From the IMG/VR virus record IMGVR_UViG_2740892258_000013: 28,905 bases of DNA. One strand, written 5' to 3'. The position numbers were made by a program, and so were the translations under genes. Source of the stretch: a virus. Its lineage: Duplodnaviria; Heunggongvirae; Uroviricota; Caudoviricetes. Below the pieces are notes generated by a model. It was not told where the DNA came from. It searched no databases and worked only from the letters and a program-made list of their open reading frames with translations. Shown here in pieces: positions 2,309 through 11,050 of the stretch (positions are counted from its first letter, which is position 1; each line of letters starts with the position of its first letter).

Positions 2309-3307
2309 CTATTTCTCTGCGCTGCCATGCTGCCTCGATATAGAATAAGAGATCAGGTCTGACCCCATTTCTCTGCGCTGCCATGCTGCCTCGATATAGA
2401 ATAAGAGATCAGGTCTGACCCCCCATCTAGATCCTGCTGGCGTTATTTCAACGCGCTCAATGATGTCTTCTATTACCATCACTGGATTATCATCCTCATC
2501 AACAATGATGCTCCCGTCATTATCAGTCAGCGGCATTTCCCTTTGGCCAGTAATGACGTCATCATATACTGCGGGATAATCGTCATAGCAAAGAAAGGCA
2601 TAGCGGCATGTTGTGCTTTCTTCTTCCATGAGTCCGTGAGAAATAAGAACATCACGAAGTTGCTGCGCGATTACACCATGATGTATCCTCGCCCCTTCTT
2701 CCCCCTTTATAGCGACAGCGTTCAGCCATTTATAAGCGATATACCTGACGTCACCCCAGGCATCCAGCAATGTTTCGTCAGGAGAGACCGGCTCTGTCTT
2801 TAATGTTCCGTCACTGGTAACCACAGGATTGGAGCCAAGATAAACTATCGAGAACCTGTTTCCCGGACCACCAAGAGCATTTACATTATCAAGATAAGGT
2901 TTAACATCTCCGTTCTCAAAAAGATGTTCGAGTGCGTTATATACCGCGCGACGTGGAGTACTGCTTCCGGAACCATGCAACGTTATCATTGCACCATCTG
3001 CTGAAGACGTTGTTTCACCGCCGCTAACGATTAATCTCTGAGCGGTAACATCATCAGACGGTACTTTCTTCGCAATAATGGCGTAATTACCCTCAAGTTT
3101 GACTTCCGCGCGAACTTGTCCTGATGTACCTGCATGGACAGTCAGTGACTGGACGGCAACATCATCTGTGAAATCAACGGGTACAGGAACCGTCCTCACG
3201 CCTGACGTCGACATAAAAGTAGGAAGCGTTCTGTTAGGAGTGGCTCCGTAGACAAAATCCCTTGAAACAAATTCTTCCTGTTTAATTTTCACCCTGAAAC
3301 AATACAA
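2309..3307 (-). CDS. Tailspike fragment: C-terminal stalk and chaperone-like region
   Basis: 332-aa ORF. Its C-terminus is altered by the 56-bp duplication at 2311-2422. Confidence 0.7.
   Translation of the reverse strand: MYCFRVKIKQEEFVSRDFVYGATPNRTLPTFMSTSGVRTVPVPVDFTDDVAVQSLTVHAGTSGQVRAEVKLEGNYAIIAKKVPSDDVTAQRLIVSGGETTSSADGAMITLHGSGSSTPRRAVYNALEHLFENGDVKPYLDNVNALGGPGNRFSIVYLGSNPVVTSDGTLKTEPVSPDETLLDAWGDVRYIAYKWLNAVAIKGEEGARIHHGVIAQQLRDVLISHGLMEEESTTCRYAFLCYDDYPAVYDDVITGQREMPLTDNDGSIIVDEDDNPVMVIEDIIERVEITPAGSRWGVRPDLLFYIEAAWQRREMGSDLISYSISRQHGSAEK
2311..2422. repeat. Exact tandem duplication, 2 x 56 bp (tailspike 3' end)
   Basis: Copy 1 is 2311-2366 and copy 2 is 2367-2422, identical by direct reading. 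56 is not a multiple of 3, so it shifts the frame. Confidence 0.95.
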
Positions 3308-3443
3308 ATCAGCCGGGTGACCATCGTGAACATAAGGATATTTTCTGTTGTTATCCCCTATGCTCCATGGGTTTAGAAAGTCTTCCCCACCGAAAATGTA
3401 GTACAGCCAGTTGTCTTTGATACAAACTGAACCAACACCAACC

Positions 3444-3555
3444 GCAGAGTTAACTATTCCGCCCTGATAAATCTGATCAGTAACATTAACCCACTCTACG
3501 CAGAGTTAACTATTCCGCCCTGATAAATCTGATCAGTAACATTAACCCACTCTAC
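3444..3555. repeat. Exact tandem duplication, 2 x 56 bp (tailspike)
   Basis: Copy 1 is 3444-3499 and copy 2 is 3500-3555, identical by direct reading. Confidence 0.95.
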
Positions 3556-3590
3556 ATTATCCAGACTCCACTCATTGACGTTAACTCTGG

Positions 3591-4766
3591 TCATAAATGT
3601 TCTTGGATAATTTCCTGCATAACGGTTATCAGGTTCTCCTCCTTCCCACTCACCAAATGCGCGCTCTTTCCTGCATAACGGTTATCAGGTTCTCCTCCTT
3701 CCCACTCACCAAATGCGCGCTCACTGCCAAAAATAATCAGCTCATCGCCAACTTTGGCAAAAGGAAGGTTTGAGTGATGAACATTATTTGGGAAGCGAAG
3801 AGAATTCCATGATGTACCTAAATCAGAGCTTCTGTGCAATGAACTACCGGGTTGAGTACTTAATGTCCCCCTGGTCGTCAGATACAGAATGCCATCATAA
3901 TATTTTACACATGGCTCAGATGCATTCGCCTCATATTCTGCAGGTATGCGTCTGCGAACAAAGCTACCAGGAGAACCGAAAGCATCAGAGAAATAGAGTA
4001 TCCCAAGCTCGCGTGGACCAATATCACCATTATGGTAGCCAACAGCAAAACTGTTATCGCTAATCGTCGCAAAACTGTGAATCTCAGTAACAGGAGTGCT
4101 TCCGTCAACAAAAGAAGGAATAGTTCCAAGACTGGTTTTTCTCCATGGTGACGAGTGAAATGATGTACCAAAACTCCAGTATCTACCCTCGTTATTCTGA
4201 TCCACATCCTGGGTATTTTGCGTCGTAACTGTAAAAGTATTTTTATCAATAACAGTAGTCACCGTCATATTCCCGGTAACACCTGTAACACCAGAGTTTG
4301 AGAAGTTGACAAAATCACCAGCAAATAATCCGTGATCAGTAATGCGAATATAAGCGACTTGCTGATTTGCTGCTTTCGTTATACCACCATAAACGCGAAG
4401 GCTGCGACTCATTGGGCGATCCCACAACTCTGCAACCTGCAGTTTATTTCCGCTCACGGTCCGCGTCTCAATTACAGCAAAAAGGCGATTTCTGACAACC
4501 CCCATACTCATGCAGTGATAGTTAACTGTGGGATAGTTTTCATGTAAATCTGTAAGCCATTCCGGCGTTGTCCAGGTCTTCCCGTCATCTCCTGAGCGAA
4601 CCCATGCAACATGGAGGTTATTTACACCATGGCGGTCTCCAGCCATAAAAGGCGCATAGATGACATTGTCATATACAAACGTTTTATCCTGCGTCCAGGC
4701 GTTGTACCACGGTGTATCTGTAATTTTAAATAACTCTCCCTGGATAAAATCTTCAGAATGTACCAC
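3591..4766 (-). CDS. Tailspike fragment: endosialidase catalytic (sialidase beta-propeller-like) region
   Basis: 391-aa ORF. Its first 19 residues duplicate the end of the upstream fragment (4622-4921) because of the 56-bp duplication at 4703-4814. Confidence 0.75.
   Translation of the reverse strand: MVHSEDFIQGELFKITDTPWYNAWTQDKTFVYDNVIYAPFMAGDRHGVNNLHVAWVRSGDDGKTWTTPEWLTDLHENYPTVNYHCMSMGVVRNRLFAVIETRTVSGNKLQVAELWDRPMSRSLRVYGGITKAANQQVAYIRITDHGLFAGDFVNFSNSGVTGVTGNMTVTTVIDKNTFTVTTQNTQDVDQNNEGRYWSFGTSFHSSPWRKTSLGTIPSFVDGSTPVTEIHSFATISDNSFAVGYHNGDIGPRELGILYFSDAFGSPGSFVRRRIPAEYEANASEPCVKYYDGILYLTTRGTLSTQPGSSLHRSSDLGTSWNSLRFPNNVHHSNLPFAKVGDELIIFGSERAFGEWEGGEPDNRYAGKSAHLVSGKEENLITVMQEIIQEHL
3611..3722. 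repeat. Exact tandem duplication, 2 x 56 bp (tailspike)
   Basis: Copy 1 is 3611-3666 and copy 2 is 3667-3722, identical by direct reading. Confidence 0.95.
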
Positions 4767-6459: not shown

Positions 6460-6522
6460 GTCGTTAATTCCTATGCGTGGTTTTACGATACCGAAGCCCT
6501 GACTGTTCCCGCAGTTGGGGCT

Positions 6523-6726
6523 TCAACTTTCTGCTCTATCAGTTATATCTTTCCCTTCGTATACTTCACCTATATTGCTAATGCTGGCAGAACATCCAAG
6601 ATGCTTGTATCTTATGATGTCCAACACGCAGTCACTACACAGCATCCGACCTGTTTCTTTAGAGTAAATGTATGTTTGATCAGCGTCTGATTCGCTAATG
6701 CCGCAGAAACAACATTCTTTACTCAT
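6523..6726 (-). CDS. Small Cys-rich (zinc-ribbon-like) protein of unknown function
   Basis: 67-aa ORF with CCFC and CSDC motifs. Its ATG overlaps the arc stop (ATGA), suggesting translational coupling in an arc-orf-ant operon. Confidence 0.5.
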   Translation of the reverse strand: MSKECCFCGISESDADQTYIYSKETGRMLCSDCVLDIIRYKHLGCSASISNIGEVYEGKDITDRAES

Positions 6727-6863
6727 ACCATCACCCCCTCTCTCTTCAAGCTGTCCAGCACCCGTTTAATTACTTCTGCGCTAAACGATCGACACTCTTC
6801 CTTTGCTTTCTCTTCAAGGATTTTTTCTAACTTCTCTGGCATACGCAGTGTTTTTACCTTCAT
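6723..6863 (-). CDS. arc: Arc-like ribbon-helix-helix repressor
   Basis: The internal Met of ORF 6723-6929 (MKVKTLRMPEKLEKILEEKAKEECRSFSAEV...) is preceded by a GGAGG Shine-Dalgarno. RHH-like N-terminus in the P22 arc position. Confidence 0.6.
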   Translation of the reverse strand: MKVKTLRMPEKLEKILEEKAKEECRSFSAEVIKRVLDSLKREGVMV

Positions 6864-6968
6864 TGCATCCTCCGCTGTATGTGGTACGCATACATAGTAT
6901 TTAGGTACGCATTGATAGTCAATAGACACCTACATATCCTGTGGTAAAAAATTATTCAGGGTGTGCCG
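6864..6968. promoter_or_regulatory. Divergent promoter/operator region between arc and the plus-strand RHH-mnt genes
   Basis: 105-bp intergenic gap between divergent RHH genes. Direct repeat GGTACGCAT at 6883-6891 and 6904-6912 (21-bp spacing). Exact promoters and operators are not defined. Confidence 0.35.
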
Positions 6969-7226
6969 ATGTCTGATCGTAAGTACAAAAACCCTCAAGT
7001 GAATCTGAGGCTTCCTGTAGAGATAAAGGAACGTCTTATTGAACTGGCTGAGGCTAATTCTCGTTCATTAAATGCTGAGATGGTCGCTGCACTTGAAGCA
7101 TGGACCGAAAAAAATAAACACATTCAAGCACTAGACCTTGCAACTATAGCATCACGATTGATAGATCTTGAACATGATGTTGAGAAGTTGAAATGCATGT
7201 ATGGCAACAATAAAGACGAAAGTTAG
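6969..7226 (+). CDS. Ribbon-helix-helix (Arc/Mnt-like) DNA-binding protein, extra paralog
   Basis: N-terminus NPQVNLRLPVEIKERLIELAEANSRSLNAEMVAALEAW fits the RHH fold and has a C-terminal extension. ATG at 6969 is preceded by AGGG; the ORF track starts at a GTG at 6963. Confidence 0.6.
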   Translation: MSDRKYKNPQVNLRLPVEIKERLIELAEANSRSLNAEMVAALEAWTEKNKHIQALDLATIASRLIDLEHDVEKLKCMYGNNKDES

Positions 7227-7249: not shown

Positions 7250-7498
7250 ATGGCTAGAGATGATCCGCACTTTAACTTCCGTATGCCTTTGGAAGTAAGA
7301 GAAAAATTGAAATTAAGAGCCGAGGCTAACGGAAGGTCAATGAACTCTGAGTTATTACAAATCGTTCAGGATGCGCTATCAAAACCATCACCGATTGCAG
7401 GTTACCGTGACGAAGCAGAACGTATGGCTGATCAGCAAGCAGAAATTGTTAAGAAGATGGTGTTTGAAACCCTGAAAAAAATGTACGAGACCAGATAG
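7250..7498 (+). CDS. mnt: Mnt repressor
   Basis: 82-aa ORF, near-identical to my recollection of P22 Mnt (MARDDPHFNFRMP.EVREKLK.RAEANGRSMNSELLQIVQDALSKPSP...). GGAG Shine-Dalgarno upstream. Confidence 0.9.
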   Translation: MARDDPHFNFRMPLEVREKLKLRAEANGRSMNSELLQIVQDALSKPSPIAGYRDEAERMADQQAEIVKKMVFETLKKMYETR

Positions 7499-7540
7499 GT
7501 CAATGTTTGTTCGTTGATATAAAATAACAAGGTATACATT

Positions 7541-8140
7541 GTGATTGAGATAGGCGTTATGGCCATCCTGAATCAAGAGCCAGGAAAAATTGAAAACGTT
7601 TTTTCTGACATATCAACATCTATCGAGCGTTCAATTTCAGACTTTGATCGCAGTCATAGCGGCTCTTTGTCTAAAAAACAGGCTTCTGAAGCTCTTAGCA
7701 AGATCTACTGCGTTATGTCACCTGTAGAGGAAGTTTGCAAAAAGTACATTACATTCATTGACATATTAAGTAATGGTACAGAAGAAGATATTTCCTCACT
7801 TAATATTCAACATGACGATGTAGATATGTTGAACGATCAGATATCTAAGCTTGATTATGGTATCGCGAAACTGTTGTATACCTTCTTCATCGCTGAGAAC
7901 AGCGATGCGTGGAAGCCCCATATGTCAACTCTTACAACAATGAAAAACCACTCAATCAATACTTTTATAGAATACAAAAGGCTAACAATGGGGCTTGTGA
8001 CGCTAGCAATGCAGCACATACCACTATCATATGCTGAACCTGAAGAGTTCACTGAAGAAGAGTTGGCTTCCTTCAAGAAATCAGTTGAAGATTCACATAA
8101 AAGATTTGGCATGGAAGCACCAAAATGGAAAACCGCATAA
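7541..8140 (+). CDS. Hypothetical acidic protein, first gene of the AT-rich cassette
   Basis: 199-aa ORF with a GTG start (alternative ATG at 7559). No recognisable motifs. Overlaps the next gene by 16 nt. Confidence 0.5.
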   Translation: MIEIGVMAILNQEPGKIENVFSDISTSIERSISDFDRSHSGSLSKKQASEALSKIYCVMSPVEEVCKKYITFIDILSNGTEEDISSLNIQHDDVDMLNDQISKLDYGIAKLLYTFFIAENSDAWKPHMSTLTTMKNHSINTFIEYKRLTMGLVTLAMQHIPLSYAEPEEFTEEELASFKKSVEDSHKRFGMEAPKWKTA

Positions 8141-8544
8141 GCATTGTTGTAGATGCAGCGGCTGGACCATTAGAACAATACTTTGCGAAGGCTCTTGCAA
8201 ACTACAAAAACAGAGGCACCGTTTCAGCTTATCTTGGTAAGATTGGTGGGTTTGAGAGAAACCATCACGCCGTCTTATCGGGAATTTACAAGTCGCACAT
8301 CAGGATCCCTGGAGTAGATGATCCTTGGTTAAGAACAACGCCAATACATCGTAGAGTTAGCGATAACTTTTTGATATTTGCGGTACACAACACATATCCA
8401 ATTCATATCCAGATCATTGCTATCATTAAACCTGATGGTCATGAGAAGGTAAAAAAACTATTGCCAGCCATCATTGATATAACTGAAAAAAGATTCCAAT
8501 CTCTAAATGAGAGGGAGCTTAACTCGTTGATTTCATACAAATAA
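8125..8544 (+). CDS. YafO-family toxin-like protein (putative ribosome-dependent mRNA interferase)
   Basis: 139-aa ORF. Motifs FERNHHAVL and IIAIIKPDGHEK resemble E. coli YafO (FERVAHIHL, LLIAILKPEPHK) as recalled from memory. The function is a hypothesis. Confidence 0.5.
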   Translation: MENRISIVVDAAAGPLEQYFAKALANYKNRGTVSAYLGKIGGFERNHHAVLSGIYKSHIRIPGVDDPWLRTTPIHRRVSDNFLIFAVHNTYPIHIQIIAIIKPDGHEKVKKLLPAIIDITEKRFQSLNERELNSLISYK

Positions 8545-8566
8545 AATATCAACTAAGGGGGTTGGT

Positions 8567-8890
8567 GTGTATACAACAGTTATCGCGATAGCTATCGCAC
8601 TCATTGTGGTTCAGTACCAACTGGCATCTTTAAAACAAAAGATATCTGACCTCAAGACTGAGAACGAAGCACTTAAAAACTCAATAAAAGATGAGAAGAA
8701 CAAACTATCATTCACTATATCTGATATTGAGCAATCCATTGAAATTATTGAGAATAATATTAACAGATTAAAAAAAGAAGATATTCATGAAATCAATGAC
8801 AATATCAAGGATTTGAAATCTTGGCTTAGGAATGTAGGACAAATCGCCACATCAACACGAGATAAGCTCAATACATCCATGGATGATTAA
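8567..8890 (+). CDS. Small membrane protein with N-terminal transmembrane helix and coiled coil
   Basis: 107-aa ORF with a GTG start preceded by a strong AAGGGGG Shine-Dalgarno. Hydrophobic N-terminus (YTTVIAIAIALIVVQY) followed by heptad-like charged sequence. Its stop abuts the convergent gp16 stop. Confidence 0.6.
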   Translation: MYTTVIAIAIALIVVQYQLASLKQKISDLKTENEALKNSIKDEKNKLSFTISDIEQSIEIIENNINRLKKEDIHEINDNIKDLKSWLRNVGQIATSTRDKLNTSMDD

Positions 8891-11050
8891 TTACTCCTGT
8901 GCCATTCCGCTTAGCGACGCTACAATGCCAGCCCTCGCTAAGCGATTGAACTCTTCGTTTCCAACTGCATCGCGTATTGCTTTTACGGCGGCTTTATTTG
9001 CCATAAATCTGCGTTCCGCCGCCGCTAATGCTTCTTTACTTCCGCCAGCTCTTACTGCTTTCGTGGCTTCCTGAACTGCTTTCTCTATCGCATACCGACC
9101 ACTACGTGTGGTGGCAATTTTAGATACAGCACCTTTTAGCCCGGCGCCAACTAAAGCACCTGCGGCAGCGCCTGCAATGCCCCCTCCTGCTCCACCAACA
9201 ATGGCACCTGATGTTGAATTGGCAATTGCATTTAACACTGTTGATGTGACGTTGGATAAACCGGCATCCAGATCGCGTAGTACATTGGCAGTTCTCCCTG
9301 TTCTTTCAATATACTGCTGAGGTTTCACTGCTGCTCTTGCAAGAGTGCCATATGCATCTGCAATTCTTCCAAGCTCTGAGGAATATCGGCTAATGGCTTT
9401 TACATTTTGTGGAGTGAGTATCTCTGCGATATGGTTAATTCCTGCTGCATCAGCTTTACCACCACGTACACCATGCGAGATAGCATCTTGCAACATTGAT
9501 GATATAGCAGGAACACGCTCTGATTCTGGCAGCGCGCGGATCATAGAATGGAATCCAGCAGGACCATTAAGACCTTTAGCTGACGATGATTGAAGGGATT
9601 TTACTCCATTCGTAATCAGTGCATCTGTTGCCAAATCACGCCCGAAAACAGACTCTGCACTCTCTTGTGCTGATAACCTCGCTTTAGACAGATCATTAGC
9701 TTTTTGCCAGTCATCAAGAAATCCGCCGTTTTCCGCCATTGTGCGCATATCATCAGTAATTGCCCGGCGTATTTCCCCTGCTCTCCTTGCCGCATTTGCC
9801 TCTCCGCTACGCTTATATTTTTGCTCCGCATCAGCAAATTTCGCTCTCCATGCTTTCATGCCGTCAAATGTTACTCCACCTTGATTGTTTGCCTGAACAA
9901 ACTGTTTCATTTCAGGAGTAAGCGGTATGCCGGCAGATCGCTCTGCCTGAATAACGGCATTACCATTTAGCATTCTTGCTTTTTGATTTGGCATTGTTGA
10001 CCGCACGTCATCCCATGCCGCGCGCTCGGCATCCTTCATCTGATCAAGATTTTGAAGAATCCTTTGTTTTATAGCCGCACTTTTTTCTGATGCCGTTCCA
10101 GATGCGGCCCCAAATTCATCAAGGTTTCGACTTAACTTTGATGATATTTCGTTAAATGCTGCCTGATGGGCGTCCTGAACAATTCCTGGTGTTGATGCCA
10201 ATGCGCCTTCGGCTTGTGCAATTCCACGACTTCCAGATCGCATTCCTGGTGTTAATGCGTTTATATCAATTCCAGCAGACTCAGCCGCTTTTGCTACATC
10301 TTCGGACACATTAGCGGCCTGACTGGCAATTGACTGACGCCCAGCACCTGACTTTGCCATCCTAGAAACATCATTAGCAGAATTCAGTGCTGCACCACCA
10401 AGAGCCTGTGAAACCCTTGGCGCAATAACGCGCCCGACACCTGAAAGAACGCCTTGAGCACCAATATTGATACCACCGTTAATGGCAGCATTTTGTGCAA
10501 AGTCGCCCTCCTGATTTGCAGCATCAGCAAGAGAACCTGCAATCATGTTTCCGGCGGAACCGATATCTCCAGCGAGCTTTGCTGTCGCTCCAGCAGCTTT
10601 TGCCGCTGTGCCAATTGGCAGGAGATACCCACCAATTGTTTCACCGGCTTGCGCGTAAGGGTCTGTCGGTCGCTCGGCAGGGCGATAAACATCATCCAAA
10701 ACCTTGGGGCCGCCAAGCCCCTGGCTGATTGCATTAATCAGACTTGCGCCACCCTGCAATACGTCAAATGGTATGTTTACCAGACCACGACCAGCCTGTT
10801 CTGCAATTTGCCCTGCACTTTGACCACCTGTGAGCCAATCACCAGCTTGTTGCATCAATGATGGTTCTTCTTTCTGCTGCTGAGGCGGAGGGTATGCTGC
10901 ATAAAACTGATCTCTTGCTTCAGCCCATTTGTCACCAGCCTTAGGGGCAACAACCTCATCAAAATATTGCGCTTGAGCCTGTGCTTTCTGTTCTTCAGTT
11001 AACGCCTGATACTGTGGAGAAGCGATAACATCTTTCCATGCTTTAGCCAT
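8891..11050 (-). CDS. Ejection (internal virion) protein, P22 gp16-like
   Basis: 719-aa Ala/Gly-rich ORF in the gp16 position at the end of the late operon. Overlaps the gp20 stop (TAATG). Confidence 0.8.

Follow-up and report, generated by a model that had tools for sequence, protein, structure and literature searches.

What do the three plus-strand genes between mnt and gene 16 of a P22-like prophage encode, and do they belong together? The question concerns positions 7541 to 8890 of a 28,905-nucleotide (nt) stretch of viral DNA (IMG/VR record IMGVR_UViG_2740892258_000013), which is called the window here. The window is 100% identical to phage CUS-3 (CP000711.1), a P22-like prophage of Escherichia coli K1 strains, and the CUS-3 record lists two hypothetical proteins and "hkcB" in this interval. 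A preliminary description had treated the three genes, here A, B, and C, as one undescribed cassette with a YafO-like toxin. We find two modules instead. A and B probably make up a toxin-antitoxin (TA) module of type II, in which B would be a YafO-like mRNA endonuclease toxin and A a new modular antitoxin that neutralizes it through a C-terminal tail. Gene C is hkcB, which encodes a small membrane protein; it goes along with gene 16 and stands apart from the A-B module.

The three open reading frames (ORFs) had been described as encoding 199, 139, and 107 amino acids (aa), with a 16-nt overlap between the first two. They were found at exactly the same coordinates (Table 1), and the overlap spans 8125 to 8140. 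Orthologues in other genera conserve the length of the ORFs, synonymous sites are saturated, and the nonsynonymous substitution rate (dN) is 0.16 to 0.51. These ORFs are therefore real genes under constraint. A and B are both under purifying selection, and A is evolving the faster of the two.

The identification of B as YafO-like held up in a profile hidden Markov model search. B matched the Pfam YafO_toxin model (PF13957) with 43.6 bits against a gathering cutoff of 25 (E = 3.2e-11; profile positions 2 to 98 of 101). Relatives of B scored up to 65.7 bits. In UTI89, as in 43 further complete E. coli genomes, RefSeq PGAP gives B the name "type II toxin-antitoxin system YafO family toxin." YafO has been shown experimentally to be a translation-dependent mRNA interferase, is encoded in antitoxin-toxin order, and belongs to the RelE/ParE BECR superfamily (PMC2814082, PMC11980606). 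Two motifs of B had been attributed to E. coli YafO. The first, IIAIIKPDGHE, aligns with LIAILKPEPHK of that protein; the second, FERNHHAVL, has no counterpart there. GGFER is the mark of the B subfamily that pairs with A. The alignment shows neither this motif nor the C-terminal extension of B in YafO. Residues G38, H58, P67, R77, D80, L83, P103, H106, E121, and F124 are invariant in a multiple alignment that includes K-12 YafO. The conservation of H58, R77, D80, and H106 is only suggestive of a RelE-like (BECR) fold with a catalytic face.

The pair resembles E. coli yafNO in several respects. Both have a toxin in PF13957, antitoxin-then-toxin order with close coupling, an acidic upstream protein, and a basic downstream protein. 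His, Arg, and Asp positions are conserved between B and YafO. The systems differ in the partner, since A has 199 aa, is all-helical, and is unrelated to YafN (Phd/YefM type). They also differ in location, as A-B is carried on a prophage whereas yafNO lies in the dinB SOS operon.

Every A-family gene with a readable context has a gene of 124 to 139 aa immediately downstream. Among these contexts are the immI regions of CUS-3 and Salmonella, two bare sites in chromosomes, a siphovirus from bat gut, the tail module of a Leclercia prophage, the nin region of a Klebsiella prophage, and the baseplate regions of metagenomic phages. A search run per subfamily added 40 viral contigs, and the downstream gene was then classified by script in 48 loci. 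The flanks of these loci form about 17 distinct clusters on the upstream side and 17 on the downstream side. The 16-nt overlap is also present in Salmonella, Pectobacterium, and Xenorhabdus. In the 190-aa subfamily, the genes are separated by 1 nt (TGAnATG). The overlap suggests that translation of the two genes is coupled. A and B thus share the generic layout of type II TA systems: they are adjacent and co-directional, they overlap by 16 nt, and they are kept as a unit in about 17 contexts. The gene order, the overlap, and the pairing of an acidic A with a basic B fit the architecture of these systems.

The copies in Leclercia and Klebsiella occupy different phage regions, yet they share DNA homology over an interval that begins about 220 nt upstream of the A gene and ends shortly after the stop codon of B, so the mobile unit consists of the leader, A, and B. 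A-B is a horizontally mobile two-gene unit. Genes of 151 aa lie downstream of both cassettes and were considered as a third component. These genes are related neither to one another nor to C, and were therefore rejected.

The A family has two types of C-terminal tail on a shared core. At all 42 loci with a type-1 tail (motif ...SH-x3-G-x3-P-x-W), as well as in the window, the downstream gene belongs to the YafO family (E ≤ 1e-48). At all six loci with a type-2 tail (...P-x-WV-x-[ST]-[GS]-x-[DE]-F-x-x-W...), it belongs to the phrog_5954 family and encodes 124 to 130 aa. All 48 loci pair each tail type with a single family of downstream partner. Across the type-1 subfamilies, the tail motif is conserved more strongly than any other part of A. 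The tails switch at about residues 155 to 160, where the PHROG match of the type-2 protein stops (residue 155), and this point coincides with a predicted linker in A. Such covariation would be expected of a constant scaffold that carries a binding element specific to the partner. One type-1 cassette (L013) and two type-2 cassettes (L017 and L018) share flanks, so the two types are alleles of one slot in related phages.

The second partner family is possibly an undescribed toxin family. It carries the motifs LPGRNKPSTGVS, WHYHIGY, GDWTS, and HPP, and always follows A-like proteins with a type-2 tail. It had no Pfam or PADLOC match and no PDB relative detectable by sequence. A relationship to YafO was considered and rejected (hhalign probability, 0.3 to 0.4%); a likeness of the H...H layout seen by eye was unsupported. 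In locus L019, a gene at 3240 to 3620 has a type-2 tail (RPDWVKTGADFVKWMRIRK...) on a different, shorter N-terminal body that lacks the A-like core. It lies next to a CI/LexA-like repressor gene (2017 to 2847) and upstream of a type-2 partner.

Terminal elements of this kind are known from PanA antitoxins, which act by "linear neutralization" with exchangeable termini (PMC10440598). The A family would resemble PanA (PMC8832971, PMC10440598) in pairing a conserved antitoxin core with unrelated toxin families and in drawing specificity from exchangeable terminal elements, and it is likewise frequent on phages and prophages. Unlike PanA, A has no DUF4065/Panacea hit in Pfam, and its core is an elongated helical bundle. 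Also unlike PanA, the A family showed only two partner families, and with 36 representative clusters it is very rare. YafO does not figure in the main text of the NetFlax paper.

Protein A has no match among Pfam and NCBIfam models and matches phrog_18235, a PHROG family of unknown function. When 1.84 billion representative proteins were searched exhaustively with a profile, its family came to only 36 clusters. About 25 of the 36 encode proteins of 184 to 218 aa, and none has an informative domain fusion. The AlphaFold model of A is an elongated helical bundle with a predicted local distance difference test score (pLDDT) of 78.7. A disordered N terminus (residues 1 to 18) is followed by long helices, bundled as far as residue 157, a nonhelical linker of low confidence (158 to 171), a final helix (172 to 188), and a short tail. 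A fold search with this model returned generic helical-bundle matches only.

The proposed mechanism follows from these parts. B, as a YafO-family endoribonuclease of the RelE/ParE superfamily, would block translation by mRNA cleavage. A would be its cognate protein antitoxin and the founder of a previously uncharacterized family. Its core, a constant helical bundle (about 19 to 157), would be joined by a flexible linker to a C-terminal tail that can be exchanged (about 158 to 199). The tail would bind and neutralize the partner encoded immediately downstream. We infer that B is toxic, that the A tail neutralizes it, that the cassette has a promoter, and that carriage brings a biological benefit. 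This benefit would be stabilization of the prophage or locus, or defense by abortive infection.

Several results weigh against this reading. On the side of A, Pfam, NCBIfam, and the fold search found no helix-turn-helix, ribbon-helix-helix, AbrB, or Phd domain. Pfam, the fold searches, and hhalign found no similarity to YafN or any known antitoxin. Many type II systems, though not all, have an antitoxin with a DNA-binding domain that autoregulates the operon. A had already been described as free of recognizable antitoxin features, and we agree that it is not of the YafN/Phd type: it has no Pfam hit, and a comparison of the A-family profile with YafN gave a probability of 0.2%. A is also large for an antitoxin at 199 aa, so its core may have another role. 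On the side of B, identity to E. coli YafO is only about 18 to 21%. B is not an orthologue of that protein: it scored 13.9 bits against the NCBIfam YafO equivalog NF007377 (cutoff, 153), and pairwise BLASTP with K-12 YafO was not significant (E = 0.027 over 11 residues). No YafO relative was detectable by sequence in the PDB. The AlphaFold model of B has a pLDDT of 41.8 and is too poor for a RelE-like fold or active-site geometry to be recognized.

The sampling of loci weighs in the same direction. Many of the 48 loci are near-duplicates, and the type-2 class is small (six loci in about five contexts). All loci were ascertained through A, an approach that would miss YafO genes of the subfamily with no A gene beside them. 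One locus (L051, 3501 to 4073) has an interrupted A-like gene beside an intact B and is the sole candidate for a broken A. This interruption is probably a sequencing error, since it consists of compensating -1 and +1 homopolymer indels in a sequence that is otherwise 99% identical to the intact Klebsiella cassette.

These results leave some room for a different role of the pair. A may be a regulator, adaptor, or toxin activator, with B a nontoxic or differently controlled RNase used in phage gene expression or host takeover. The absence from A of every canonical antitoxin fold, its size of about 200 aa, and its well-folded model would agree with this, as would the divergence of B from characterized YafO in the NF007377 and BLASTP comparisons. 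We consider it improbable. The autonomous chromosomal copies between housekeeping genes are hard to explain by a function in phage expression. Strict adjacency, overlap, charge complementarity, and tail-partner covariation are as predicted for a direct binding and neutralizing partner.

Gene C had been counted as the third member of the cassette. It is hkcB, which forms part of the conserved backbone together with gene 16 and matches phrog_5962, a family of unknown function. C had been described as having one N-terminal transmembrane helix and a coiled coil; its N terminus is hydrophobic (Kyte-Doolittle mean over residues 1 to 19, 1.82), and the other hits were sub-threshold and of the coiled-coil type only. 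Its AAGGGGG Shine-Dalgarno sequence is present at 8555 to 8561, 5 nt ahead of the GTG start codon. HkcB shares 97% identity with its relative from epsilon34, 92% with that from SEN22, and 55% with that from HK620. All three phages lack A-B, and their hkcB gene lies directly against the gene-16 homologue.

The conservation of the trio as a unit had been put forward as a check, and A and B occur separately from hkcB in other phages and genomes. In a Salmonella P22-like prophage, mnt, A, and B lie against gene 16 with no hkcB. A-B is also present without hkcB in a Pectobacterium chromosome, between an ABC transporter operon and gcvP, and in a Xenorhabdus chromosome. Of the 5,426 complete E. coli genomes, 44 have A-B, 74 have hkcB, and 36 have the contiguous trio; about 38 have hkcB without A-B. 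In strain SFAD3, a 99%-identical A-B adjoins an hkcB allele that is just 50% identical.

This separate distribution contradicts the framing of the trio as a three-gene "exclusion module." That A, B, and C make up one three-component exclusion, abortive-infection, or toxin-immunity unit is highly improbable. In its favor, the genes are packed tightly in one direction with no predicted terminator to separate them, and the 36 genomes keep them contiguous. Set against this are the hkcB genes without A-B in epsilon34, SEN22, HK620, and the E. coli genomes, the lack of C beside A-B in every context that is not of the CUS-3 type, and the unequal divergence in SFAD3. A recombination junction also falls exactly between B and the hkcB Shine-Dalgarno sequence.

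That junction was located by aligning CUS-3 with epsilon34. The two are near-identical through mnt, lose homology at about 7480, regain it at about 8551, and are 97 to 99% identical beyond. A-B therefore exactly fills a variable slot. The slot is part of the "ant moron," where genetic flux is high and where P22 and a third of P22-like phages carry sieA (PMC2629481, PMC10461980). The earlier view of a replacement moron is supported for A-B, which sits where P22 has sieA. In both CUS-3 and P22, the slot is flanked by genes 16 and 9, lies downstream of mnt on the strand expressed in the prophage, and has an equally high turnover of cassettes. The occupants differ. SieA, a multipass protein of the inner membrane, prevents the injection of DNA (PMC10461980). 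A and B are soluble, and only hkcB is membrane anchored, with one hydrophobic segment. Pfam and PHROG scans of A, B, and C gave no match to an exclusion protein; these were family scans, with no direct pairwise comparison to SieA.

Other occupants of the slot were seen in related phages. Epsilon34 carries gp15 there, on the opposite strand. Its product has 139 aa and was considered as a relative of B, to which it is unrelated. In E. coli ISHS7 (L056, 2302 to 2995), the slot between mnt and hkcB holds a different overlapping two-gene cassette. It encodes proteins of 121 aa, with weak zinc-ribbon-like hits, and 111 aa; neither could be assigned to a family.

A-B would be a self-contained module inserted into a variable, prophage-expressed slot of CUS-3, and its location fits an accessory function expressed in the lysogen. 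Transcription in the lysogen would probably start from a -10 element of its own and be supplemented by read-through from Pmnt, and translation would be coupled through the overlap. The sequence TATAAAAT-n-AAGG is kept upstream of A in CUS-3, Salmonella, Pectobacterium, and Xenorhabdus despite otherwise unrelated flanks, which suggests that the cassette has its own promoter. A generic promoter scan made no call at the -10-like element (7515 to 7525). Read-through from Pmnt is also plausible, since the prediction placed no terminator-like site on the plus strand from the mnt genes to gene 16. A-B lies antisense to the late operon, whose minus-strand course leads from gene 16 via ant to the tailspike gene. 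We speculate that late transcription might for this reason interfere with A-B expression after induction. A palindrome at 7523 to 7546 was considered as an operator and rejected, as it is not conserved in orthologous leaders.

The position in this slot also bears on a second role. A-B may serve mainly as a prophage-encoded abortive-infection system against other phages, in which the core of A senses a phage, or A is depleted, and the RNase is freed. We regard this as possible, if somewhat unlikely; it refines the TA reading and does not exclude it. A-B occupies accessory slots in many prophages, including the immI/ant moron, the nin region, and tail and baseplate modules. In CUS-3, it fills the exclusion slot of P22, which holds alternative cassettes in related phages. 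The type-1 and type-2 cassettes are allelic, the large conserved core of A has no assigned role, and TA modules of the RelE superfamily can act in defense (PMC11980606, PMC10440598). Against a defense role, B had no match in PADLOC-DB v2, and A had one marginal match to PtuB (E = 0.0043; 14.8 bits). The scanned relatives and the type-2 proteins had no PADLOC match, and C had coiled-coil-type matches only. A literature search found no paper that links a YafO-family toxin to phage defense, and A-B also occurs alone, outside a phage context, in the Pectobacterium and Xenorhabdus chromosomes. A "defense hotspot" at the slot in related E. coli myophages could not be demonstrated; the slot holds an unannotated 170-aa gene with no family match there.

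A broader possibility is that the A family consists of modular sensor-antitoxins, in which the core reads a phage or stress signal and plug-in tails restrain different RNase-like toxins. This is unlikely on present evidence. If true, it would reveal an unrecognized prophage-borne abortive-infection family with interchangeable effectors at accessory hotspots such as the P22-like ant moron.

The cassette had been called undescribed, and this applies to part of it. B is a YafO-family toxin of a known kind and is already annotated by PGAP, and unknown YafO partners appear in bulk surveys (PMC3141249, PMC10790755). Leplae et al. (2011; PMC3141249) describe the YafO family as paired with Phd-type or unknown partners only and absent from phages. 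A 2023 E. coli survey (PMC10790755) gives 13 partner clusters for YafO_toxin, only 8% of them known. The A family, its tail modularity, and the second, unrelated partner family appear to be undescribed; literature searches by accession and locus tag found no paper on these proteins and no description of the A family. Partner shuffling in TA systems is well established, and A-B brings no new principle. If confirmed, it would provide a new antitoxin family for the small YafO toxin family and a compact natural example in which exchange of the terminal tail, with the core kept constant, switches specificity. The module lies on the CUS-3 prophage present in clinically important K1 strains such as UTI89, RS218, IHE3034, and APEC strains. 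It could therefore contribute to prophage retention or phage resistance in K1 lineages.

Table 1. Coordinates of the features discussed. Positions are those of the window unless another locus is named.
Feature	Position	Strand	Details
P22-type sar antisense RNA	6461-6528	+	Start of ant; Rfam RF00262, 84.6 bits (gathering score, 43)
Cys-rich ORF	6523-6726	-	67 aa; CxxC ... CxxC; between arc and ant
Arc-family protein UTI89_RS12875	~6723-6863	-	46 aa; annotated by RefSeq PGAP
Arc/Mnt-like repressor gene, first of tandem	6963-7226	+	
Arc/Mnt-like repressor gene, second of tandem	7250-7498	+	
Variable slot filled by A-B	7480-8551		Left junction in last codons of mnt; right junction just before hkcB Shine-Dalgarno sequence
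Putative promoter and ribosome-binding site of cassette	7515-7532	+	Extended -10-like TGATATAAAAT at 7515-7525; AAGG at 7529-7532, 8 nt before the GTG of A
Gene A	7541-8140	+	GTG start; 199 aa; acidic (pI 5.0); all-helical; rare uncharacterized family; proposed antitoxin
Linker and C-terminal tail region of A	8012-8137	+	Residues 158-171, helix 172-188, SH-x3-G-x3-P-x-W motif; proposed element for neutralization of a specific partner
Gene B	8125-8544	+	139 aa; basic (pI 9.65); YafO family (PF13957); putative mRNA endonuclease toxin
Gene C (hkcB)	8567-8890	+	GTG start; 107 aa; N-terminal membrane anchor and coiled coil
hkcB/gene-16 stop-stop junction	8890/8891; L002 3649/3650; L055 4356/4357; L056 3340/3341		
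Gene-16 homologue	8891-11050	-	Convergent with hkcB
phrog_5954 partner genes	L005 2065-2457; L015 4034-4408; L016 4042-4422; L017 2539-2916; L018 4034-4411; L019 3604-3990		

The abutting stop codons of C and the gene-16 homologue had been noted before and are as described (Table 1). In every phage examined, the stop codon of hkcB directly abuts the convergent gene-16 stop, with 0 bases in between, and no terminator separates these two convergent transcription units.

The region had also been described as visibly richer in AT than its flanks. The GC content is 0.376 for the trio (0.389 for A-B and 0.330 for C), 0.471 for the window, 0.487 for gene 16, and 0.40 to 0.42 for the two mnt genes. 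The AT excess is thus clear on the late-gene side and just slight on the mnt side.

Upstream of the slot, the window contains an antisense RNA of the P22 sar type and two tandem Arc/Mnt-like repressor genes (Table 1). The CUS-3 record calls both of these genes mnt, and only the second encodes a Repressor_Mnt C-terminal domain. The epsilon34 genome paper describes CUS-3 as apparently lacking arc, in contrast to the PGAP call of an Arc-family protein. A small Cys-rich ORF lies between arc and ant. A 63-aa gene occupies the same position in the Salmonella prophage (L014, 4902 to 5093).

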